From an uncultured virus (IMG/VR IMGVR_UViG_3300008113_000102) (Duplodnaviria > Heunggongvirae > Uroviricota > Caudoviricetes), in the IMG/VR virus record IMGVR_UViG_3300008113_000102: a stretch of DNA of 64,000 bases, one strand, 5' to 3'. Positions 419 to 26,493 of this stretch are shown one piece after another. Both the position numbers and the translations under genes were made by a program. How positions within the stretch are numbered: the first letter of the stretch is position 1; every line of letters starts with the position of its first letter. Under the pieces are notes generated by a model. That model saw nothing but the letters and a program-made list of their open reading frames with translations, had not been told where the DNA came from and made no database searches.

Positions 419-738
419 TAGCGATTGAGGGAAACGATGTCGCTAGTTCTTTTCAAGGTGGGTTCTCACTTACGTTTAAAAACTAAGAAATGCTGAACCC
501 GACAATGCGAAATATAGACATACTATATAGTAGCACTAAGGATTGTCTGCCGAGCCTATAAGCACCCCAACCACCACACCATCACTAGCTTGAGGGTATA
601 AAAAGAAGCTAGGGAAGTAGCTACCACCTATATAGGTAGCGTTGACCTCCAACTACGGAATCCGATGTGGAATGCATAGGTTGGTACTTTCAAGATGTCT
701 TGTCTGCTACCTTCTTACCCACACGATGGCCACACATA
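419..738 (+). ncRNA. Candidate structured 5' leader or ncRNA
   Basis: No ORF in the track; serial stems TAGCGA/TCGCTA, GGGTTC/GAACCC, GACAAT/ATTGTC, CTAGCTT/AAGCTAG, GCTACC/GGTAGC, CCAAC/GTTGG. Confidence 0.45.
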
Positions 739-760
739 TTAACCAATAAAATTTAATACC

Positions 761-949
761 ATGGACACAACATTTAAAGAAATCAGTAAATTTTGGAATT
801 CTCAACCATTACTTGAAAGATTAATATTCTTAATGAATAAATTCAATTTTTCTGAAGATGAGGCCACCACATTGGCCAAATTAGACTATTCAAAATTTGA
901 GAAGGAATTCACCAAGAGAACACTAAAAAGGTTAACTGATGAGGCCTAA
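761..949 (+). CDS. Early hypothetical protein; 3' end overlaps hammerhead 1
   Basis: 62 aa ORF with A-rich leader. Confidence 0.7.
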   Translation: MDTTFKEISKFWNSQPLLERLIFLMNKFNFSEDEATTLAKLDYSKFEKEFTKRTLKRLTDEA

Positions 950-991
950 ATGGCCGAAATGTGCATCCCTAGGGGGATGTGCATATTAACC
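930..991 (+). ncRNA. Hammerhead ribozyme type I (HH1), predicted cut after A985 (AUA)
   Basis: GGTTAA-CTGATGA-GGCC(TAAAT)GGCC-GAAA-TGTGCATCCC(TAGG)GGGATGTGCA-TA-TTAACC: full core and three stems. Confidence 0.95.
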
Positions 992-1007
992 ATAAAAATT
1001 TTTAAAA

Positions 1008-1229
1008 ATGAATCTAAAATTTAAAAAAGTAGCAGACACATATGTAGCTACAATGCCTACAAAAGTTGGTATTTATGAAATTCAAATTTTTACTAATTAC
1101 GATAAGAAATTTGGATGGCAAATACACTTGGACAATACTTTTTTGGATAGCGATTACGGATACCGCAAAAAAGACTGCGTACTAGCTGCTACTGACACGT
1201 TACAAGCAATTATTAACCGATTAAACTAA
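1008..1229 (+). CDS. Early hypothetical protein
   Basis: 73 aa ORF starting 22 nt after the HH1 cut site. Confidence 0.75.
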   Translation: MNLKFKKVADTYVATMPTKVGIYEIQIFTNYDKKFGWQIHLDNTFLDSDYGYRKKDCVLAATDTLQAIINRLN

Positions 1230-1234
1230 ATACC

Positions 1235-1438
1235 ATGACAACCTACGAACACAAGTTATTCAGCGATTTATTAAGTGTAAATATGCTAATTGATGAACAA
1301 GAAAATAAAGAGGTAGCAAGATTCTTAACCATTGCATACCATTCTATCCAAAATGAATTAAGAGAATTTATGGGTGATAGAGAATATAGCGAATTCATAC
1401 GAATGGGCAGAGAAATGTTTGCCCCTGCTAAAGGTTAA
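1235..1438 (+). CDS. Early hypothetical protein
   Basis: 67 aa ORF; its stop TAA is part of HH2 stem I. Confidence 0.75.
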   Translation: MTTYEHKLFSDLLSVNMLIDEQENKEVARFLTIAYHSIQNELREFMGDREYSEFIRMGREMFAPAKG

Positions 1439-1485
1439 CTGACGATGGCCTGATTGGCCGAAACGCTCTCAGGAGCGTCTTAGCC
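1433..1485 (+). ncRNA. Hammerhead ribozyme type I (HH2), predicted cut after C1479 (GUC)
   Basis: GGTTAA-CTGACGA-T-GGCC(TGATT)GGCC-GAAA-CGCTC(TCAG)GAGCG-TC-TTAGCC. Confidence 0.93.
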
Positions 1486-1501
1486 ATAAAAATACCATAC
1501 C

Positions 1502-1675
1502 ATGAGTCCAAATTTAGCTTTTACCATTGCTATTGAAAATGGGTTGCTGAGCAGTAATCCAAACGATCAGAATTATGCCGGTCTTTATATGTACATGGGT
1601 GTGCAGCACCAAGGAACAGATAAGGAAGTACTGCTATTTAAAAATATCAACACACGAGAATATATCAAATTTTAA
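1502..1675 (+). CDS. Small early hypothetical protein (57 aa, not in ORF track)
   Basis: Hand translation MSPNLAFTIAIENG...REYIKF*, starting 22 nt after the HH2 cut site. Confidence 0.7.
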   Translation: MSPNLAFTIAIENGLLSSNPNDQNYAGLYMYMGVQHQGTDKEVLLFKNINTREYIKF

Positions 1676-1684
1676 ACTAACCAC

Positions 1685-1960
1685 ATGAAACCAAATTTAA
1701 AAAGAAGATTAGCAAATGTGAATGCTAAATTATCCAAGCATGGCTTCCGTCCGTTTAGTTGTTCAGAAGCTATCAAATTTAATTCAATTATGCTCCCTGA
1801 GAGCGGTCAGGATGCCGGATGGAAAGCAATTGACCATTGCAAGCCTAATGGGATGCTAGGATACGAGGTTGAGCGATTCTTTAATAGGAGGGATGCCATG
1901 CAGATTGGTGACACCCTGATTGAAATTAGCAGAACATATAGCGGTGTTGATATATACTAG
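1685..1960 (+). CDS. Early hypothetical protein
   Basis: 91 aa ORF; one base separates its stop from HH3. Confidence 0.75.
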   Translation: MKPNLKRRLANVNAKLSKHGFRPFSCSEAIKFNSIMLPESGQDAGWKAIDHCKPNGMLGYEVERFFNRRDAMQIGDTLIEISRTYSGVDIY

Positions 1961-1961
1961 A

Positions 1962-2067
1962 GGTTAACTGATGATGGATTCAATATCCGAAACATCCTAG
2001 AGCTACCATGCAGAGCGTGGGGGTACATTTATCAAATCGGTAGGGTACCGGCTAGGATGTATTAACC
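1962..2067 (+). ncRNA. Hammerhead ribozyme type I (HH3) with 51-nt stem III insert, predicted cut after A2061 (GUA)
   Basis: GGTTAA-CTGATGA-T-GGAT(TCAAT)ATCC-GAAA-CATCCTAG[51 nt]CTAGGATG-TA-TTAACC. Confidence 0.9.
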
Positions 2068-2106
2068 ATAACGTGGAGTCACCACATAAAAAACTGAAAA
2101 TATTTT

Positions 2107-3006
2107 ATGAATAAGTTACAAGACACTTTCTCAGCCCGTACACCACAGGAAGCAGCATCAAAATTAGACAGCATTTTAGCCAATTCTAGACAGGATAATG
2201 TCTTGGTTGACTCATCCATCGTCCCACTGCAAAGCCTGACAGGAATCGCCTCTAGGAGAGGTTTAGAGAATGCCATCATCTGTGAGAATCAAATCGTGAA
2301 TGTGGTTTCTAATTCTTATGGCCATCTACCAAATGAGAAATTTTTTCTGGGTGTAGAGGAGAAGCTAATTGATGCAGACATCTACTACCAACAACGCAGT
2401 ATCAATCGTGACAATCGCTCGTTTGTAGTTGATTACGTCCTAGCAGATGACAGGTACAAAGTAGCTGTTAAAGGTGAACAGGATGTACTACGTCCTATGC
2501 TACGATTTGTGAATAGCTATGATGGTTCATGTAAGACTAGCGGTTCTTTTGGATTTTGGCGCAAGGTGTGTGACAATGGCCTCCATGTAGCACAAACACA
2601 CATTGGCTTCTCAGTTAAGCACTCAGGGGCTATTGCTGACATTGTAATGCCTAAATTGGATGAGATTGTAGGTAAGTTCATGGACAACGAATTCTATAGT
2701 CTAAAACGCAAATTTGAGGTGCTTGCAGAACGTCCGGTGTATAACCTAGAGGATTATGTAAAGTTCACCGCTAAAACATCAGGATTGTTTAAGTATGAAT
2801 CTAGCGATAAGAACCCTGAGCCTAGCGCCAATGCAAGATTTGTTTTTGATGTGATTGAGCGCGAATCAAAGCTACTAAACACGCGTCCTAATCAATGGAT
2901 TGTATACAACGCATTCAACGAATTATTACATGGTAAATTAAAGAAAACATTTGACCAACAACGTACACTAGATGAGAGATTATTTGAAACAATCTACGCA
3001 GGTTAA
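2107..3006 (+). CDS. DUF932-family protein
   Basis: NSYDGS...R.VCDNGL motif and the C-terminal W.VYNAFNE pattern typical of DUF932. Confidence 0.8.
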   Translation: MNKLQDTFSARTPQEAASKLDSILANSRQDNVLVDSSIVPLQSLTGIASRRGLENAIICENQIVNVVSNSYGHLPNEKFFLGVEEKLIDADIYYQQRSINRDNRSFVVDYVLADDRYKVAVKGEQDVLRPMLRFVNSYDGSCKTSGSFGFWRKVCDNGLHVAQTHIGFSVKHSGAIADIVMPKLDEIVGKFMDNEFYSLKRKFEVLAERPVYNLEDYVKFTAKTSGLFKYESSDKNPEPSANARFVFDVIERESKLLNTRPNQWIVYNAFNELLHGKLKKTFDQQRTLDERLFETIYAG

Positions 3007-3051
3007 CTGACGAGGCCTAATGGCCGAAACCACCTTCGGGTGGTCTTAACC
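3001..3051 (+). ncRNA. Hammerhead ribozyme type I (HH4), predicted cut after C3045 (GUC)
   Basis: GGTTAA-CTGACGA-GGCC(TAAT)GGCC-GAAA-CCACC(TTCG)GGTGG-TC-TTAACC; UUCG tetraloop. Confidence 0.96.
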
Positions 3052-3090
3052 AATTGTGGAGTCACCACATTAAAAACTGAAAAAATTAAA

Positions 3091-3507
3091 ATGAAATACG
3101 CAATCATTGAAACATGGAACGGCGAAGGTTATTCATTTCAAAATCTAGCTTACATTGAGGAATTCAATTCGGATGCAGAAGCGCAACAAAAATTGAGAGA
3201 TTTAATTGCGATTGAATCTGATGCTGAAAATATAGTAGAATCAGATGGCATAATCACATACGATAAACATGATGACAGCGGTACATTTCAATTTATAAAA
3301 AATGCTGAATCAATTTATGGTGTAGTTATTCTGACAAATGTAAACGAGGTGGTTGCCATCCGTAATAAAAAAGATTGGCTAGCCAAAATAAACATTGCAG
3401 TTCAACAATCTGATTCTGATGAAACCGATGAACTTGATTTATCATCTGATAACATTTTTATAGGCGCATACGAAGGAGATTACGATTATCAATTTATAAA
3501 ATTTTAA
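3091..3507 (+). CDS. Acidic early hypothetical protein (start revised to ATG 3091)
   Basis: Track start 3040 lies inside HH4; ATG 3091 follows an A-rich leader 45 nt after the cut site. Confidence 0.75.
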   Translation: MKYAIIETWNGEGYSFQNLAYIEEFNSDAEAQQKLRDLIAIESDAENIVESDGIITYDKHDDSGTFQFIKNAESIYGVVILTNVNEVVAIRNKKDWLAKINIAVQQSDSDETDELDLSSDNIFIGAYEGDYDYQFIKF

Positions 3508-3521
3508 AAAATAAACCAACC

Positions 3522-3644
3522 ATGGACACAATCTTAGTAACACTCTACGCAATCACATTGACACTATGCGCCACATCTTTCACATTAATTTTTGGCGCTC
3601 TGTCAGTTAAAACATTGAAAACAATCAAATCATTTTTATTCTAA
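3522..3644 (+). CDS. Small hydrophobic peptide (40 aa, not in track)
   Basis: MDTILVTLYAITLTLCATSFTLIFGALSV..., A/C-rich leader. Confidence 0.5.
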   Translation: MDTILVTLYAITLTLCATSFTLIFGALSVKTLKTIKSFLF

Positions 3645-3693
3645 TTTGCCTAAAAGTAAAGACATACAATTAACCACTATTAAATTAATTAAA

Positions 3694-3999
3694 ATGACAA
3701 ACAAATTTGTAATTGACTATGACAACAAAGTATTGACCTTACACTACCTAGAGCAGGTCTTTATGTTTGATTTAAATGCCGGTGATACCGGTGAATATTG
3801 GCATGGATTTGAACTGAAGGACGGCACCAAGCTAGATGTTAATTACCATCAGGAAGATGCAAACCAAGAGCCGTATTGCGAAATATGGGACACTGCATTA
3901 AATAAAGAAGATGGTAAGCATTATATCAATCATGAGGTTGATGGCATTGATAACTACGAGATTCTAGGTAATCCTATAAACTACTTTAAAATTAAATAA
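3694..3999 (+). CDS. Early hypothetical protein
   Basis: Track ORF 3646..3999; ATG 3694 is the likelier start. Confidence 0.7.
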   Translation: MTNKFVIDYDNKVLTLHYLEQVFMFDLNAGDTGEYWHGFELKDGTKLDVNYHQEDANQEPYCEIWDTALNKEDGKHYINHEVDGIDNYEILGNPINYFKIK

Positions 4000-4000
4000 A

Positions 4001-4198
4001 ATGACAGACTTGATTAAAGTTTATGCAATAGACGCTAATAAAATGGGTGATGATTTCAAATGTTTAACTTGTAGTGATGATGAGTTCATAGCAGAAGCAA
4101 CCAAGCAAAACATACCACCCATTGACATTAAAAAATTTGAGCGGATGTTCAATGTTTCAGTGTTTGACTACGAAAACTTTATTATTAGATTTATTTAA
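4001..4198 (+). CDS. Early hypothetical protein
   Basis: 65 aa ORF, tightly packed. Confidence 0.7.
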   Translation: MTDLIKVYAIDANKMGDDFKCLTCSDDEFIAEATKQNIPPIDIKKFERMFNVSVFDYENFIIRFI

Positions 4199-4209
4199 AA
4201 TTATATAAA

Positions 4210-4473
4210 ATGAAAAGTAAAATACCAACTGAGAAAATAGAAAAATGGATTAACATTCTCCTAGATGAAATTGATGCAGATGAATTGTTTAGGATGCTAT
4301 TAAACGAATGCAATAAAAAACAATTGGGATACATTCATGACGCAATTAAAGACGAATTAAGGCTACATGATAAGTATGTAATAGATTGTACCAACTTAAA
4401 TGATAAGCAGAAATTTGAGGCCTTTATAGAAGATTATAGGCCATATTATAACGAGCAACAAACAATATTTTAA
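4210..4473 (+). CDS. Early hypothetical protein
   Basis: 87 aa ORF. Confidence 0.7.
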   Translation: MKSKIPTEKIEKWINILLDEIDADELFRMLLNECNKKQLGYIHDAIKDELRLHDKYVIDCTNLNDKQKFEAFIEDYRPYYNEQQTIF

Positions 4474-4491
4474 ATTATTAAATTATCCAAA

Positions 4492-4680
4492 ATGACAAAT
4501 CTAGAAATCAAAATCAGACTAGAACAAATCCTAGCTAAGATACAAGAGAACACCGACTTCGGTTGGAAGGATGACCTTGAAGATACTTTTGAATGTGTAG
4601 TGCTAGAGGATGCACAACAATCCATGTACAATGGATGGCTAACTGAATTAGAAGCACTGCATGATGATATAATAGTTTAG
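4492..4680 (+). CDS. Early hypothetical protein
   Basis: 62 aa ORF. Confidence 0.7.
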   Translation: MTNLEIKIRLEQILAKIQENTDFGWKDDLEDTFECVVLEDAQQSMYNGWLTELEALHDDIIV

Positions 4681-5133
4681 GTTAACGAGGGATGCGCATT
4701 CGTAATCACGCATACTTTATATATTATCCAATCTATTAAACTTTTAAAAAGTGGAAGCAGCCATCTTACTAACCATTCTATTAACCCTATTCATAGGCGC
4801 AGACCTTAGTACTAAGGAAACCGGATATACCAACAACAAATTTGAGGATATTAATAATTAATTTAATTAAATATCAATTTTATTACCTAATTTGCGTAAA
4901 ACTAAAAAAAATAATAACCAACCAACCCTTAACCCATGGAAACCATTGTAAAATTAAATGCTCAAATCAGAGCGTTAAACAAAAAAATTGAAACCAACAA
5001 CACAAAGAACATTTATGCAGTAAAACAGAAAATAAAAAATCTGAAAGCTAAATTGAAAGTAGAATCTGACAACTATAATTGGGAGAACTATCTCTCTAGG
5101 TAGTATGATTAAATTAATATTAAATGATAAATT

Positions 5134-5376
5134 ATGAAAGAAAGTTTAAGCAAAAAAGAAATGCTTCGGTATAATATGTACCGAATGTTTAAGGATGATG
5201 CGATACCATACGCAGACATGGAAGATTTTATAGTTATGTGGCAGGCTCTAGCTGACAAGTGGGAGATACACCTATCTGATGATGAATGGGACCAATTTGC
5301 CGAGGAAATCAATAGCGAGGCATCCAATAGACAAAACGTATTTAACGAGATTTTTGACACATATTTTAACCAATAA
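5134..5376 (+). CDS. Hypothetical protein
   Basis: 80 aa ORF. Confidence 0.7.
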   Translation: MKESLSKKEMLRYNMYRMFKDDAIPYADMEDFIVMWQALADKWEIHLSDDEWDQFAEEINSEASNRQNVFNEIFDTYFNQ

Positions 5377-5387
5377 AACAAAACAAC

Positions 5388-5600
5388 ATGACAAAGTACG
5401 AACTAGTAAAAAAGACAGAAATTAATGGAGATGTATGGTATTTCATTCGCAAAGATGATGGCTATTCGGTGGACAATACTTGGACAACGAAAATAGAAGA
5501 AGCGGAACAAATGTTACATGAACTTGAAAACGGCAGACCTCCAATGCCTATTTTTGAAACCCTTAAAACAATTCATGTAGAGGAGGGCGATGATGATTAA
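5388..5600 (+). CDS. Hypothetical protein
   Basis: 70 aa ORF. Confidence 0.7.
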   Translation: MTKYELVKKTEINGDVWYFIRKDDGYSVDNTWTTKIEEAEQMLHELENGRPPMPIFETLKTIHVEEGDDD

Positions 5601-5737
5601 ATGGCTGAATATCTATTTTTCAGAAAAGGAAAAGATTAAACGGAAGAAACTAAGAGAGATAGACAAGAGAATAGCTAGTGCGGATGACTATGACGAGCTA
5701 GTCAAATTAACCCGATTATATAACCGAATAAAACAAG

Positions 5738-5944
5738 ATGATGAAGAGCAAACAGATTAGCTTAAAAGAGTATGCAGATAAGATAAACCCTGAGCATTTT
5801 AGAGCTAATAGGAAGAACCTCACTGCCCCCATGACACAACAAGCCATCAAGTACAGAATCAAAAACAATATGCCCCTACCTGAAGTATTAAAGTATACTA
5901 GGGTAGGCAAGGTCCACGTTCTTACCGTAGATGCCAATTTTTAA
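5738..5944 (+). CDS. Small basic, possibly HTH DNA-binding protein
   Basis: SLKEYA...MTQQAIKYRIK pattern. Confidence 0.5.
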   Translation: MMKSKQISLKEYADKINPEHFRANRKNLTAPMTQQAIKYRIKNNMPLPEVLKYTRVGKVHVLTVDANF

Positions 5945-5967
5945 CTAATTAAAACCAACCAAACCAA

Positions 5968-6964
5968 ATGAAAACAAACTTAGAATGGGTAATCAATTGC
6001 ATTAACTCATGCACCAACCTAGAACAATTAAAAACTTGTGAAGTAATTATCGGCCTTTATAAATTCAGATTAGCTAAAGACGGCATGACCGAGGCAGACA
6101 TATATGGGGAAGAAAGCCAGTTATTAGCTGCTTATTTGGATAAGGAGGCCATGCTTTTGATCTAATGAAAAACAGGTATCAAATATCCGAATCTGCCATG
6201 ATCCAAATGGAAAATGACTACTTAAAGGAGAGGATAGAATTATTAAAAAATGAAGTAAAGTATTTAAAGGAAAAGTTATTATCGTATGAGGAAGTCAGTA
6301 GAGAAGGATATAATGGAGAGCAAACGTCAGGAACTCAAATCATCAGGAATAATTGAAGTATGGGTAAATGATAGCTTGTATGCAACGAAACAATTTAAAG
6401 GGAGAGGCCACCGCAGTAAAATCATTCAGGAATGGCTGCAAAGGTTAGGCAAACCCTATGAACCAAGAAAAATTTATTTAGTAGTAAAACCAATGCACCT
6501 ATGACAAACATGACACCAATTAGACAAGTAATGGAGGCCCGTAGTTTTCGTAATCAAAATGACTTTGATACATGGTTATTAGATAACTTTGATAGGCTAT
6601 TTAATGAGGAGAAATCTATGATAGCCGAGGCCATGGAATATGCTTTTGATGAGGACGGGCATAGCAAGACATGGCGGAAAGCAGTCACTGAAAAATATTA
6701 CCTTGAAAAGTATATCCAAAAGCCAACCCAGTAACCATTAAAAAAAAGTAAATGACCGACCTACAAAAGCAGTACATAGACCAACGCTACAAGTATGAGC
6801 CAATATCCATGATGATACCCAATATCAACATGACCTATTTGCAGATATTAACCTACTATAAATCAATGGGATATGAGCCATTAAAGAAAAGAGGTAGAAG
6901 GCATGAGCATAAAACCCCAGCTGGCTACTTTGATATTGATAACTACAAACCAGAAACAATATAA
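5968..6964 (+). CDS. Run of five small hypothetical ORFs (5968-6165, 6165-6356, 6286-6504, 6501-6734, 6752-6964)
   Basis: Closely spaced or overlapping ORFs on one strand. Confidence 0.65.
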
Positions 6965-7120
6965 GATTGCGTATTTATACTTAATATTAATTAAATTAAT
7001 TAAATCAACTTTGTACTTTATTAAACCAATTAAACCAATAAACCTATGAACACATTTTATGTAATTAAAGACCTTCGTGATAACGAAAAAGTATATCAAA
7101 TTAACCAAAACAAATAACCT

Positions 7121-7363
7121 ATGAAAACAGCAATGCAAGAATTAATTGAAGAATTAAGAAGTTTAGCTTTTACTGAATGTCATATAAGTATGGGAGCTAT
7201 TATGCTTACACAAGGACACATTGACGAATTAGAAGAAAAATATATTAAAAAAGAAAAAGACCAAATTATATCTTCTTATAATGAACCTCTATGGATTACT
7301 GATAAACCAAATGTTAAAGCAGAAGATTACTACAACCAAACCTTTAAACCAGAAACAATATGA
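7121..7363 (+). CDS. Small phage protein (MKTAMQELI...YYNQTF type)
   Basis: KEKDQI..SY and AEDYYNQTF motifs resembling small Bacteroidota-phage genes. Confidence 0.7.
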   Translation: MKTAMQELIEELRSLAFTECHISMGAIMLTQGHIDELEEKYIKKEKDQIISSYNEPLWITDKPNVKAEDYYNQTFKPETI

Positions 7364-7755
7364 AAAAGAAACCAATACATAAGTACAATGGAGGAATGGG
7401 TGCTACATTATGCCATCATTGTAGAGTTATAATAAATACAGGAATGACAGATGATATATATTGCAAGGATTGTGCAGACAATAAGGTAACCTACCACAAC
7501 AGGTACAGAGATAAGATAATCTTTGAACACAATGGAGATGAAGTTATTATGACAGGTGGTTCATGGATGCGGTATGGTATAGCAGATGATGATAGTATTA
7601 ATATGGTAGATCCATCAGGTGGCCCTTACATTGAGTTAGGTAATAACCTTAACCACTTTTGGCCGAAAGAAGAATACCAAGACCTTATCGTAGAATCTAT
7701 TAGGCTAAAAGATGGGGGAGGAGAAGCCACAACAGTTATATTTAAAATCAAATAA
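7360..7755 (+). CDS. Hypothetical protein with two CxxC motifs
   Basis: CHHC...CKDC. Confidence 0.7.
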   Translation: MKKKPIHKYNGGMGATLCHHCRVIINTGMTDDIYCKDCADNKVTYHNRYRDKIIFEHNGDEVIMTGGSWMRYGIADDDSINMVDPSGGPYIELGNNLNHFWPKEEYQDLIVESIRLKDGGGEATTVIFKIK

Positions 7756-7778
7756 AGGTAGTAAAACTACTACCTTTT
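7754..7778 (+). terminator. Intrinsic terminator-like hairpin
   Basis: AAAGGTAGTA-AAAC-TACTACCTTT(T) right after the stop. Confidence 0.55.
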
Positions 7779-8258
7779 GCTTCCGAATAAACCCACACTT
7801 TATTACATATTTCGTAACATTTTACCCTCTAATTATGTAACATGAGAACACTACTTATTCTAGCTTTATTATGGATTATAGGCGCTTTAATTGTGGTAAT
7901 AGCTGCCATGATAGAGAAGAACAACAATATGGAAATTAAAATGGCTGAAATGCAGTCAAAATTAAATGCAGTACAAATAAAATAATAAAAACATGAAAAA
8001 ATTAATTGGGATCTTTCAAGTAGTCTTTTTCTTTTTGGTTGGCATACCAGCCTTTATATTGCTTTACGGGACAATTGTAGTAACCTTTGCTATAAAGGAG
8101 TTATTCATCTTCATCTTCGGGAGGCGCGAGGTCTATTTGGATAACAGATAGTATCTTCAGGTCCTTATATTTTTGTAGCACATCAGACATTGAAACGGCA
8201 TAAACCAGCTTTGTCATTTTGGTTCCGTCCTTATCAAAGAAGATGCGATACGTTTTCA

Positions 8259-8483
8259 TCAGTTTAGCCATTTGCCTTTTGGACAAGCATCTGCCCCCTT
8301 TGGTGAGAAAACTTTTTTACTTGTTGTGCAGCCACATGCGTCACAATAATCCCTGACTTTACCCTGAACCCAGTGTTCGCAATCAATACAAGTTAAGAGC
8401 CTTTCTTGCGCAAGCTGGCTTTCTTCTTCTGTTGGATTCATAGAAGCTGCATACGATAAGAATATTTCTTTTAACTTGTTCAT
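8259..8483 (-). CDS. Small Cys-rich (zinc-binding-like) protein
   Basis: CIDC...CDACGC...CPKGKW. Confidence 0.7.
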   Translation of the reverse strand: MNKLKEIFLSYAASMNPTEEESQLAQERLLTCIDCEHWVQGKVRDYCDACGCTTSKKVFSPKGADACPKGKWLN

Positions 8484-20293: not shown

Positions 20294-20998
20294 TTATTGT
20301 TTATAATATTCCCATTTGAACCCATACCTCTGTTTGCTCAACCCTTTGCAACAATGTGATACATTGGATTGATCAAAATTCAAATCTCTTTCTATTTGAC
20401 AAGAAGATTCCCATTTTTTTATAAAATTACCATTTAAATCATATTGAATTATAGGTTTTTTTATTTTTGAATCAGACATTTTCTTTTTTGTTAAATCTGA
20501 ATGCTTTCTACCCTTGGCTTTAATTCCTAAATTTCTAGCATTTGCTAAAACTTTTTCGCTATTTCTTAACCCTTCTGTTATTTTAGCTCTTAATTCAGGA
20601 TCTTTATTTCTTTTACTCATCCTTTCGGCCATCTTTTCTTTTTGCTCATCAGTAAAAATCCTTCTTCTGTTTGCTTCTGCAACACTTTTTCTAGTTTTTT
20701 CTGATATTATTGCATTTAAAGCTCCATCTCCGCCATTCGTCATGTTAACTAAACATCCATTTTTTAAATCAATTCTGCCATATAATTTAATAAATTCTTT
20801 TTCTTTTTCACAGGCTTGCTCCCAAGTTAAATCATCCATAAGTATTTCTACTTCATAACCTCCTTTATTGGCTACCTTTTTCCAAAAATCACTTCTACTC
20901 TTATGTCTATATGCTCTATTGTAATACTTGCTTGAGCCTATCCCTATATAGAAAGGTTCGTTTTTGTCAAGTCTGATATGTCTATAAACGTATGCCAA
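20294..20998 (-). CDS. GIY-YIG-like homing endonuclease with NUMOD-type repeats
   Basis: YVYRH...FYIGIG...R, HSDLTKKKMS, IIQYDLNGNFIKKW. Confidence 0.85.
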   Translation of the reverse strand: MAYVYRHIRLDKNEPFYIGIGSSKYYNRAYRHKSRSDFWKKVANKGGYEVEILMDDLTWEQACEKEKEFIKLYGRIDLKNGCLVNMTNGGDGALNAIISEKTRKSVAEANRRRIFTDEQKEKMAERMSKRNKDPELRAKITEGLRNSEKVLANARNLGIKAKGRKHSDLTKKKMSDSKIKKPIIQYDLNGNFIKKWESSCQIERDLNFDQSNVSHCCKGLSKQRYGFKWEYYKQ

Positions 20999-25980: not shown

Positions 25981-26493
25981 TTAAACGTATTTAAATTTTG
26001 TTGTATTTTTTAACTCGCCATTCAATCTTCTCCACAAATATTTTGCATTTACATTAATAGTATCAGCAGCTTCTTTAGCACCTTCATAAAAGACACCTGT
26101 TTCAGTATCTAATACAATTTTTTTAAATACATAACCATTTTTTGCCCCAAATCTTTCAGCAGCTATCCTGCCGCTTTCTCTTAAAGCTTCTGATATTTTT
26201 CTTAAACCTGTATCACAAGCATGTTTCATGTTTTCTGAGGGGGTAGCCCATTCCAAATTAAACAATAAATTGTTTGTTTTGACACCATCAATGTGATTTA
26301 CAGTTGCTTTATTTTCAGGGTTTTCAATATATGTTTGAGCTACTAACCTGTGAGCCAAATACGATTTACTCCCTATTTTAACATATACATAATCATTTTT
26401 AACAAAATTTTTCAAAAATCTCATTGTTTTCAAAGAAAATACTCTGCCATCCAATGTGATTAAATAGTCAGTCATTCCTTTAATTAATTTCAT
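25981..26493 (-). CDS. HNH homing endonuclease
   Basis: HRLVAQTYIENPENKATVNHIDGVKTNN...NLEW.T.SENMKHA. Confidence 0.92.
   Translation of the reverse strand: MKLIKGMTDYLITLDGRVFSLKTMRFLKNFVKNDYVYVKIGSKSYLAHRLVAQTYIENPENKATVNHIDGVKTNNLLFNLEWATPSENMKHACDTGLRKISEALRESGRIAAERFGAKNGYVFKKIVLDTETGVFYEGAKEAADTINVNAKYLWRRLNGELKNTTKFKYV

Follow-up and report, generated by a model that had tools for sequence, protein, structure and literature searches.

Hammerhead motifs in a block of small phage genes

The window analysed here, a single stretch of 64,000 nucleotides, comes from an uncultured freshwater (lake) phage, podovirus-like, whose phage identity was read from its portal and terminase proteins and from tail proteins of crAss type; it probably infects a member of the Bacteroidota. 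Within it, one rightward block of small orphan genes carries four hammerhead motifs, designated HH1–HH4 (Table 1), which are the only hammerheads returned by a descriptor scan of both strands of the 64 kb and are all of type I and on the + strand. The preliminary description of this DNA had reported four complete type I hammerheads at these positions, and the descriptor, the predicted folds and an independent covariance model agree with it.

Table 1. Hammerheads, gene junctions, predicted message units and leaders, in window coordinates
Feature	Position	Strand	Details
HH1, type I hammerhead	930..991	+	predicted cut after 985 (AUA/U); 49.4 bits
HH2, type I hammerhead, extra U after A9	1433..1485	+	predicted cut after 1479 (GUC/U); 55.6 bits
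HH3, type I hammerhead, extra U after A9	1962..2067	+	predicted cut after 2061 (GUA/U); 20.7 bits
HH4, canonical type I hammerhead	3001..3051	+	predicted cut after 3045 (GUC/U); 62.5 bits
HH1 junction	947..949	+	stop of ORF 761-949, in loop II
HH2 junction		+	stop of ORF 1235-1438 is the UAA within stem I
HH3 junction		+	stop of ORF 1685-1960 ends 2 nt before the motif
HH4 junction		+	stop of the DUF932 gene (2107-3006) is the UAA within stem I
Predicted unit 1, 494 nt	986..1479	+	ORFs 1008-1229 (73 aa) and 1235-1438 (67 aa), then HH2 body
Predicted unit 2, 582 nt	1480..2061	+	ORFs 1502-1675 (57 aa) and 1685-1960 (91 aa), then HH3 body
Predicted unit 3, 984 nt	2062..3045	+	DUF932 gene 2107-3006 (299 aa), then HH4 body
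Leader after HH3	2073..2104	+	hairpin GUGGAGUCACCAC, then A-rich tract, before ATG 2107
Leader after HH4	3056..3087	+	same conserved hairpin, before ATG 3091
First-gene leader	735..760	+	CAUAUUAACCAAUAAAA...; resembles the sequence left after the HH1 cut; no hammerhead upstream

Each of the four motifs has an open stem I and loop-closed stems II and III, which defines the type I topology. Stem I is a 6-bp helix of GGUUAA with UUAACC, except that in HH2 the 3′ strand reads UUAGCC, giving one G-U pair, and an A at position 1483 in near-identical strains restores UUAACC. The catalytic core, CUGA(U/C)GA followed by GAAA, is present in all four, as is the A15.1-U16.1 pair, and the cleavage triplets are of the permitted type, in accord with the preliminary description. 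Two of the motifs (HH1 and HH3) have A at H17 and the other two have C; G does not occur there. Stem II is a 4-bp helix in each case. In HH1, a U15.2-A16.2 pair replaces the commoner C-G, and stem III of HH3 is expanded to a 69-nt branched stem-loop. HH2 and HH3 contain one additional U between A9 and G10.1, whereas in HH1 and HH4 the G10.1-C11.1 pair directly follows A9. The extra U is shared by 33 of 239 family members and by many relatives, and on these comparisons it appears to be tolerated. A viroid hammerhead is known with an extra residue at the position after A9.

When folded in isolation, every motif adopts the three-way junction as its minimum-energy structure (z-scores of -4.4, -2.9, -3.6 and -2.9). 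Addition of 60 or 150 nt of native flank lowered the mean pairing probability of stem I from ~0.9 to 0.00-0.47 in a thermodynamic model that leaves out tertiary contacts and co-transcriptional folding; stems II and III persisted in the same model.

Motifs of this kind are rare by chance, as the same descriptor gave a mean of 0.005 matches in 200 first-order Markov sequences of the size of the window, with any match at all in only 1 of the 200. A covariance model seeded with 24 hammerheads, all from other viral contigs, recovered HH1–HH4 exactly and found no further match in the window; the low score of HH3 is attributable to its large structured stem III insert. The search with Rfam hammerhead models that the preliminary description had proposed was less favorable. 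Across the whole window, Rfam release 15 gave no hammerhead at gathering score, and Hammerhead_1, _3, _II, HH9 and HH10 were not listed at E up to 10 between positions 880 and 3120. The sole Rfam family touching HH1 and HH4 was the RAGATH-1-hammerhead (RF03152), whose scores of 28.2 and 21.4 bits fall below its gathering score of 56.3. The motifs resemble RAGATH-1 in their type I arrangement and core, but they differ in that its upstream hairpin is not convincingly matched and stem II is here a normal 4-bp helix. E-value scans of positions 1-900 and 3050-8300 revealed no additional ribozyme class.

Conservation across the hammerhead family

In the family alignment, which was fitted to the covariance model, 99.1% of cells are paired and compensatory change is seen in 14 of 16 pairs. 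None of 500 shuffles reached as high a covariation score, and slid controls were 31-37% paired. The stem covariation noted within this one genome in the preliminary description holds for the family at large, with the stems of relatives rewritten but pairing. While the stems change in this compensatory manner, 13 catalytic-core nucleotides are invariant across hundreds of diverged copies, and the core columns C3 U4 G5 A6 N7 G8 A9 and G12 A13 A14 are invariant in the 24-sequence seed.

Conservation also extends to unpaired residues outside the core. In 239 non-redundant copies, the residue just before stem I is A in 94% and the one just after it is A in 95%, and among 161 copies with a 5-nt loop II, position 1 is U in 99%, position 3 is A in 91% and position 5 is U in 99%. 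Typical of this family are a stem I fixed at 6 bp with conserved A residues at its ends, a stem II of 4 bp and a loop II of the form UNARU. Such conserved unpaired nucleotides would fit a tertiary contact between stem I and loop II and would not fit a mere hairpin, which suggests that such a contact may form; covariation gives no test of it, as the residues concerned are invariant.

Motifs in the 15 related loci all lie on the coding strand, including 35 of 35 model matches in 14 loci (113,638 bases, both strands). In 12 of the 15 loci the junction preceding the DUF932 gene retains a canonical hammerhead whose stems II and III have changed in sequence yet still pair (for example, CCACC/GGUGG versus CCAUC/GGAUGG; stem II variants include GGCC, GGGGG, GGAA, GUCC and GCAU). 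In L260, whose DUF932 gene is 98% identical, the HH3 stem III insert is kept with U-G pairs converted to C-G. In L271, a plain GC hairpin takes the place of the pre-DUF932 hammerhead, which indicates that this relative can do without the ribozyme at that junction. What is observed directly comprises the motifs, the covariation of their stems, and where they sit and how far that placement is conserved.

The relatives also differ in gene content at these sites. L260 has an extra unit of gene plus hammerhead before gene 761 and lacks ORF 1685-1960, the missing segment lying exactly between a stop codon and HH3; low-depth contigs from runs X16 and X18 show the same loss. A contig from run X20 has an HH1-like copy directly before gene 761, and in L261, L263 and L265 the genes around the hammerheads stand in a different order. 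A joint in X20 at which the sequence goes back 247 was considered as a circular junction and rejected, since 33 unrelated letters precede it and the gene order of L260 is matched; it is read as a DNA variant. Of the sequencing runs listed, none is recorded as RNA; X20, the one labelled RNA-Seq, is marked 'probably DNA' and contains only a small share.

Packing of the motifs between genes

As the preliminary description had stated, all four hammerheads are found at junctions between genes and on the coding strand. In the ORF map each begins at the stop codon upstream or overlaps it, and ends 16-39 nt short of the next ATG, and this packing holds family-wide. Among 129 copies with flanks of at least 400 nt, 123 have the stop of a same-strand upstream ORF between -60 nt and the motif end, and 109 of these 123 stops fall at five positions (47 at -6 to -2, 37 at +3, 20 at +7 and 5 at +17). 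The next ORF lies within 150 nt in 119 of the 129 copies, with a median start 16 nt after stem I, and in only one copy is the hammerhead inside an ORF. The neighbouring ORFs are small orphans (142 of 150 scanned across the family are without a Pfam family), with 5 matching the terminal-repeat protein TreK. With respect to the units in Table 1, the sizes given previously match the predicted cuts; the ORFs of unit 1 have no Pfam or PHROG family, and the product of the DUF932 gene matches PF06067 (E 3e-16) and phrog_21518.

The leaders left downstream of HH3 and HH4 are 94% identical (repeat family D10), and a match of this conserved leader to DUF805-RNA is weak (22.3 bits versus a cut-off of 51.1). 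The leader of the first gene is likewise part of a repeat (D5), in which 735-781 and 982-1028 are 72% identical. The hexamer UUAACC, which is constant within arrays, recurs ~22 nt before ATGs at junctions that have no hammerhead, and this pattern is a small addition to what has been described for such arrays. Two explanations for it were tried and rejected. A hidden ribozyme cutting before the UUAACC leader of the first gene was discarded, positions 410-760 being not unusually structured (z -0.18). Hammerhead-less UUAACC sites were also considered as half-sites for trans-cleavage; this was set aside because, of six sites read by eye, only three (739, 1213 and 5366, not 3670, 5707 or 7101) combine U16.1 with a permitted H17, and because stem III is a closed hairpin that cannot take a foreign substrate strand.

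Terminator-like sites were absent from the + strand between 33 and 8036, and a scan for sigma-70-type promoters found 32 against 37.9 expected, which is not above chance. The remainder of the + strand block, from 3.1 to 8 kb, contains no hammerhead, from which it follows that these genes do not in general need cutting.

Proposed role in message processing

Our preferred reading, to which we assign a probability of roughly 0.75, is that HH1–HH4 are active type I hammerheads that would cut a polycistronic transcript, with no protein involved, into 494-, 582- and 984-nt units of one or two genes each. As RNA polymerase passes a junction, the hammerhead would fold and cut itself after H17. The upstream message would then end just past its stop codon in a compact ribozyme body with a 2′,3′-cyclic phosphate, and the downstream message would begin with 5′-HO-UUAACC, followed by an A-rich, Shine-Dalgarno-free leader (22 or 45 nt). 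Units split in this manner could be stable and translated independently of neighbouring genes, and release of the stem I 3′ strand would clear the ribosome-binding region. Cutting itself, transcription of the block as one message, its early timing and any influence on message stability or translation are inferred, the word 'early' being drawn only from gene content and position. In favour of this reading are the rarity of such motifs by chance, the covariation, the conserved unpaired residues, the gene context among small orphan genes, the sites kept in relatives, the lack of terminator-like sites and the in vitro cleavage of prophage arrays; against it stand the sub-threshold Rfam scores, the extra U of HH2 and HH3, the U15.2-A16.2 pair of HH1, the weaker stem I pairing with native flank, the plain hairpin of L271 and the hammerhead-free stretch from 3.1 to 8 kb. 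Moreover, the tight packing of stop codon and ATG, together with the constant hexamer at the cut end within arrays, suggests that the ribozyme forms part of the signals for translation of the genes on either side.

The constancy of stem I also invites another interpretation. All stem I strands within an array are interchangeable, and 5′-HO-UUAACC could thus re-dock on the GGUUAA at the 3′ end of its own unit, rebuilding a complete hammerhead with the cyclic phosphate beside the 5′-OH; reverse ligation by the hammerhead, or a host ligase of the RtcB type, could then yield circular or reordered mRNAs. Indeed, the stem I 3′ strand is identical in 14 of 18 within-locus pairs versus 113 of 3898 between-locus pairs, in a sample where two pairs of loci look like duplicates. 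GGUUAA occurs in all hammerheads of 15 relatives while stems II and III diverge, and UUAACC occurs in all but two copies (UUAGCC in L259 HH2 and UUAAUC in one L264 copy). Perreault et al. (2011, PMC3088659) note that type I is the architecture in which the catalytic body stays on the cyclic-phosphate end, and they raise spliced or circular products, although they report having detected neither. The A/U-rich helix of 6 bp is also weak, its duplex being worth -4.1 kcal/mol; a scan of 80 window ORFs returned no RNA ligase, RtcB or kinase-phosphatase family; and stem I is not uniform within every array (mixed in L024, L025, L144, L192 and L214). A function in the leader more simply explains UUAACC before hammerhead-less ATGs. 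We regard circular or re-joined messages as very unlikely. The extended form of this idea, in which UUAACC would serve as an array-wide address yielding circular, exonuclease-proof mRNAs and phages could exchange early-gene cassettes through the common junction, is held to be just as improbable.

Selfish spread, or exchange of early-gene cassettes between phages, could alternatively be the main purpose of these sites, with hammerhead plus leader acting as a duplicating junction repeat that offers a patch of homology, and with cleavage being incidental or mildly useful. Close relatives do differ by whole cassettes at hammerhead/leader borders (L260, X16, X18 and X20), the altered gene orders in L261, L263 and L265 are in keeping with this, and the 5′ part of the motif provides stops in two frames in all copies, and in the third as well in HH1 and HH4. 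A homology patch would have no need for 13 core nucleotides, however, yet these are invariant and the stems change with compensation, and the pre-DUF932 position is kept in 12 of 15 relatives. We consider this account unlikely as a replacement for processing, with which it may coexist. Least probable of all, and in our estimation a very long shot, is that the three-way junctions act purely as structures, either protecting 3′ ends or insulating translation, with cutting not needed. The predicted stability of stems II and III in native context and the plain GC hairpin at the same junction in L271 are consistent with such a role, but it leaves the strict core conservation and the exclusion of G from H17 without explanation.

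Relation to known systems

Processing of a phage transcript between cistrons has a familiar precedent in phage T7, where RNase III cuts the early polycistronic transcript at intercistronic sites into defined mRNAs. The arrangement proposed here is similar in that a long message would be cut between cistrons. T7 processing uses a host protein enzyme and generates 5′-phosphate and 3′-OH ends, whereas the RNA described here would cut itself, leaving 5′-OH and 2′,3′-cyclic phosphate ends.

The serial layout itself, which the preliminary description had thought possibly undescribed, has been known in phages since 2011, and the present array is one more example. As set out in the accessible portion of their paper, Perreault et al. 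(2011, PLoS Comput Biol, PMC3088659) described prophages in which several hammerheads border a single gene or a short block of genes, proposed that long transcripts are thereby processed to mRNAs the length of an operon or a gene, and demonstrated in vitro cleavage for three of these tandem arrangements. Like those clusters, the array reported here consists of several close same-strand hammerheads flanking phage genes, in this case four in 2.1 kb; one of the clusters assayed flanks the anti-restriction gene ardA, and one of our units is the DUF932 gene. Going by the same portion, the differences are that our phage is an uncultured, lytic-type freshwater phage rather than a prophage of a cultured bacterium, and that all four hammerheads are of type I with one shared stem I and are known from sequence alone.

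A further parallel comes from RNA mycoviruses, for which type I hammerheads have been linked by the authors to translation of the downstream ORF (NAR 2026, PMC13725137). To judge from the available text, these also fill a short untranslated gap and cut a few nucleotides before the start codon, but they belong to fungal and plant virus RNA genomes and no conserved loop-loop contacts are reported there, in contrast to the conserved loop II and flanking A residues of the phage family. A search of the later literature on phage hammerhead arrays, circular products and crAss-like phages, in which subscription journals were little covered, returned nothing beyond Perreault et al., the 2026 RNA-virus paper and a 2019 review (PMC6765202).

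According to the part of that review available, a role for phage hammerhead arrays has been proposed since 2011 and is still not established in infection. This lineage is well suited to a test of that role. Its close relatives form a natural series at the same junctions, comprising canonical hammerheads, a U15.1-A16.1 variant, a plain hairpin, and added or missing hammerheads, and reporter constructs could probe the link between these ribozymes and the translation signals of the genes that they separate.

Structure and recognition of the four hammerheads

With respect to structure, HH1 to HH4 (see table) all share the core CUGA(U/C)GA, a 4-bp stem II closed by a loop II of 4 or 5 nt, and a GAAA segment, whose last A pairs with U16.1, followed by the stem III hairpin. 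Stem I consists of 6 bp, GGUUAA with UUAACC, in HH1, HH3 and HH4; the 3′ strand of HH2 reads UUAGCC, which leaves one G-U pair. An extra U lies between A9 and G10.1 in HH2 and HH3, and stem III of HH3 is branched and 69 nt long. A descriptor script that left the stem sequences unconstrained searched both strands of the 64 kb and matched exactly these four sites; applied to 200 random sequences that equalled the window in length and first-order composition, it gave a mean of 0.005 matches. The three-way junction was the minimum-energy structure of each isolated motif (z-scores −2.9 to −4.4); when native flanks were added, the pairing probability of stem I in the thermodynamic model fell to 0.00–0.47.

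Hammerhead motifs of the window and their predicted cleavage sites
Motif	Position	Strand	Type	H17	Predicted cut
HH1	930-991	+	type I hammerhead	A	after 985
HH2	1433-1485	+	type I hammerhead	C	after 1479
HH3	1962-2067	+	type I hammerhead	A	after 2061
HH4	3001-3051	+	type I hammerhead	C	after 3045

The Rfam hammerhead search proposed in the preliminary description returned no match in the window at gathering score (release 15), and at permissive thresholds the only match was RAGATH-1-hammerhead, at 28.2 bits for HH1 and 21.4 bits for HH4 against a cut-off of 56.3. By score, HH1–HH4 therefore fall outside every Rfam hammerhead family. We also drew two samples of IMG/VR viral contigs, the first with a pattern that included the stem I sequence (at least 130 stretches) and the second with core letters only (at least 128 stretches), and built a covariance model, R1, from a seed alignment of 24 fixed-length hammerheads of other contigs, the window being excluded. 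R1 recovered HH1–HH4 at 62.5, 55.6, 49.4 and 20.7 bits (in descending order of score) and nothing else in the window. Its 77 matches, among those listed for the core-only sample plus the window, form standard pairs in 99.1% of alignment cells, with both-sided changes in 14 of 16 pairs. An alignment fitted to the model favours structure, and the margin is nonetheless very large: none of 500 shuffles reached the observed covariation score, and pairing dropped to 31–37% when partners were slid. Taken together, sequence, descriptor, folding and R1 bear out the four complete plus-strand type I hammerheads of the preliminary description, and we put the probability that HH1–HH4 are hammerhead ribozymes at about 0.9.

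A family that fills intercistronic gaps

Features beyond the core are also shared across viral contigs. Among the matches listed, 239 non-redundant copies with flanks have an A before stem I in 94% and an A after it in 95%; the 161 of them with a 5-nt loop II share the loop consensus U (99%), N, A (91%), R, U (99%), and where an extra base follows A9 it is U (33 of 34 copies). A stem I of exactly 6 bp predominates, with 163 of 172 copies in the first sample and 76 of 91 in the core-only sample, again among the matches listed. Such constancy of unpaired residues and of stem I length may, we infer, be required by a tertiary contact between stem I and loop II. GGUUAA is the commonest stem I, yet it occurs in only 14 of the 91 listed core-only copies, so that the class as a whole has no fixed stem I sequence. 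Much larger arrays than that of the window exist in other uncultured phages, namely seven type I hammerheads of the family within 2.8 kb at locus L007 and about nine on a single 82,750-nt contig (loci L078–L081); each array has its own stem I 3′ strand throughout, which is UUAAUC in all copies of L007.

In the window, ORF 761–949 terminates in loop II of HH1, a UAA within stem I ends ORF 1235–1438 (HH2) and ORF 2107–3006 (HH4), and HH3 begins just after ORF 1685–1960, whose stop ends 2 nt upstream. The next ATG follows stem I by 16, 16, 39 and 39 nt (HH1–HH4), so all four motifs do sit at gene junctions, as originally claimed. The same packing holds for 129 copies flanked on both sides by 400 nt or more, among the matches listed: a same-strand ORF stop falls between 60 nt upstream of the motif start and the motif end in 123, 109 of these at five positions (47 at −6 to −2, 37 at +3, 20 at +7 and 5 at +17); the next ORF starts within 150 nt in 119 (median 16 nt past stem I); and a single copy is internal to an ORF. 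The whole intercistronic gap is thus taken up by the hammerhead. Among the matches listed for the first sample, 150 of 190 adjoining ORFs were scanned against Pfam, and 142 of these had no family; the remainder comprised five TreK phage terminal-repeat proteins and one each of Kyano_Gp96, RadC and DUF7222. In the window, too, the ORFs of the units are small orphans, apart from one DUF932 gene. Directly 3′ of the stop of ORF 4492–4680, at 4679–4722 (+), an apparently decayed hammerhead retains GGUUAAC and a stem III-like hairpin (AUGCGCAU...CGCAU) and lacks the CUGAUGA core and stem II.

Variation among relatives of the DUF932 locus

Fifteen viral-contig loci encode a DUF932 protein 79–100% identical to that of the window. 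Same-strand hammerheads recur in these related phages, whose survey had been suggested at the outset: the 14 non-identical loci contain 35 R1 matches, every one of them on the coding strand. GGUUAA is present in every descriptor match, and its 3′ partner is UUAACC except for UUAGCC in HH2 of L259 and UUAAUC in one copy of L264. Stems II and III diverge with pairing kept; at the site that follows DUF932, stem II takes the forms GGCC, GGGGG, GGAA, GUCC and GCAU, and stem III the forms CCACC/GGUGG and CCAUC/GGAUGG. Such rewritten yet paired stems, along with the R1 alignment, uphold the stem covariation first noted within one genome.

Of the 15 loci, 12 carry a canonical hammerhead at the junction before DUF932. 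In L266 (3888–3949) and L267 the motif at this junction is a variant whose 15.1-16.1 pair is U-A instead of A-U and whose stem II contains a bulged C (R1, 15.4 bits); a copy with U15.1-A16.1 still cleaves, less well, according to Perreault et al. 2011 (PMC3088659). At L271 (3900–3940) a plain GC hairpin (GGGGG UUAACA GCCCCC) lies between two UUAACC words, which provides a natural control, inside the lineage, in which the hammerhead is replaced. Close relatives differ by whole cassettes at hammerhead and leader borders: L260 has an additional gene and hammerhead before gene 761 and lacks gene 1685–1960, and these same variants recur in contigs of sequencing runs X16, X18 and X20. The hammerheads of near-identical strains differ at a single site, 1483, where A replaces G and the G-U pair of HH2 becomes A-U.

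A shared stem I hexamer

Among the matches listed, the stem I 3′ strand is identical in 14 of 18 within-locus pairs versus 2.9% between loci (two locus pairs look duplicate), and in L185, L229 and L245 the 5′ strand varies solely through G-U wobble. UUAACC is also found at 739, 1213, 3670, 5366 and 7101 (+), 20–24 nt upstream of the hammerhead-less ATGs 761, 1235, 3694, 5388 and 7121, within a repeated leader of about 30–48 nt (repeat families D1, D5 and D19). Across the window and relatives, TTAAYC lies at −32 to −12 in 49 of 317 ORFs, with a sharp peak at −22, counts that are not independent because relatives share junctions; 27 of the 49 leaders are not hammerhead products. In the portions of the hammerhead literature available to us, we found no description of this within-array constancy or of the hammerhead-less leaders. 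A further hairpin, GUGGAGUCACCAC, followed by an A-rich tract (2073–2104 and 3056–3087, +), leads the DUF932 gene and the next gene; it is identical at both sites, conserved in relatives, and only weakly similar to the Rfam DUF805 RNA motif (22.3 and 19.9 bits, cut-off 51.1).

The simplest reading is that UUAACC belongs to a shared leader, with stem I having evolved to pair with this hexamer. The boldest reading the data allow is that the 5′ end of each unit re-docks into its own 3′ ribozyme and the unit is then circularized. We consider this highly improbable; Perreault et al. 2011 (PMC3088659) raised spliced or circular products and did not detect them.

The plus-strand block and its predicted processing

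Gene products of the window include the portal and large terminase proteins, muzzle, ring and adaptor proteins of crAss type, collagen-like fibres, SSB and primase; nearly all of these are encoded on the minus strand, and some twenty small ORFs form a plus-strand block from 761 to about 7750. Homing-endonuclease-like ORFs (GIY-YIG/NUMOD1 and HNH) lie within the structural module at 20297–20998 (−) and 25984–26493 (−). The GC content is 34.7%, the phage DNA is found in freshwater and lake metagenomes, and among deposited phages only Flavobacterium phages share nucleotide similarity with the window, over 74 nt of the DUF932 gene. With gene content and A-rich leaders lacking a Shine-Dalgarno sequence, these features suggest a Bacteroidota host and early timing of the block. 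Positions 1–200 are G+T-rich (GC skew +0.58) with short GGTATGG/GGTAGG-like words, and are not the genome end in all relatives, since L260 extends 1467 nt further upstream.

No terminator-like site occurs on the plus strand between 33 and 8036, which is compatible with, and no proof of, long transcripts. The repeated word (C)TAATTTGC-N5-AA-N-TAAA precedes gene blocks at 234–253, 381–399, 3641–3660 and 4887–4906 (+; families D8 and D13); its 16-nt version is not above chance across the whole window. If this word acts as a phage promoter, as it may, the block would be divided into several transcription units, with HH1–HH4 all in the first.

Type I hammerheads are described as usual in bacteria and phages, and as lying directly ahead of ORFs in RNA mycoviruses, in a 2026 paper (PMC13725137). 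Perreault et al. 2011 (PMC3088659) reported that single prophage genes or short blocks are often flanked by multiple hammerheads, proposed processing into operon- or gene-length mRNAs, and showed cleavage of approximately 2-kb transcripts of three tandem arrangements, one flanking ardA; a 2019 review (PMC6765202) regards the biological role as still to be defined. The serial arrangement, which the preliminary description had thought possibly undescribed, is therefore of a known kind, and the window is another case.

A processing function is likely for the four hammerheads here, although the extra core-adjacent U of HH2 and HH3 and the reduced stem I pairing in the flanked model call for caution. 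Each would cut the nascent transcript, yielding units of 494, 582 and 984 nt, sizes that agree with the spacing of the predicted cut sites, together with the flanking stretches, before 985 and after 3046. Every unit would end 3′ in a folded ribozyme with a cyclic phosphate and begin with 5′-HO-UUAACC, and cutting would free the stem I 3′ strand, only 16 nt upstream of two ATGs. Cyclic-phosphate and 5′-OH ends are poor entry points for 5′-monophosphate-dependent and 3′ exonucleolytic RNA decay in bacteria.
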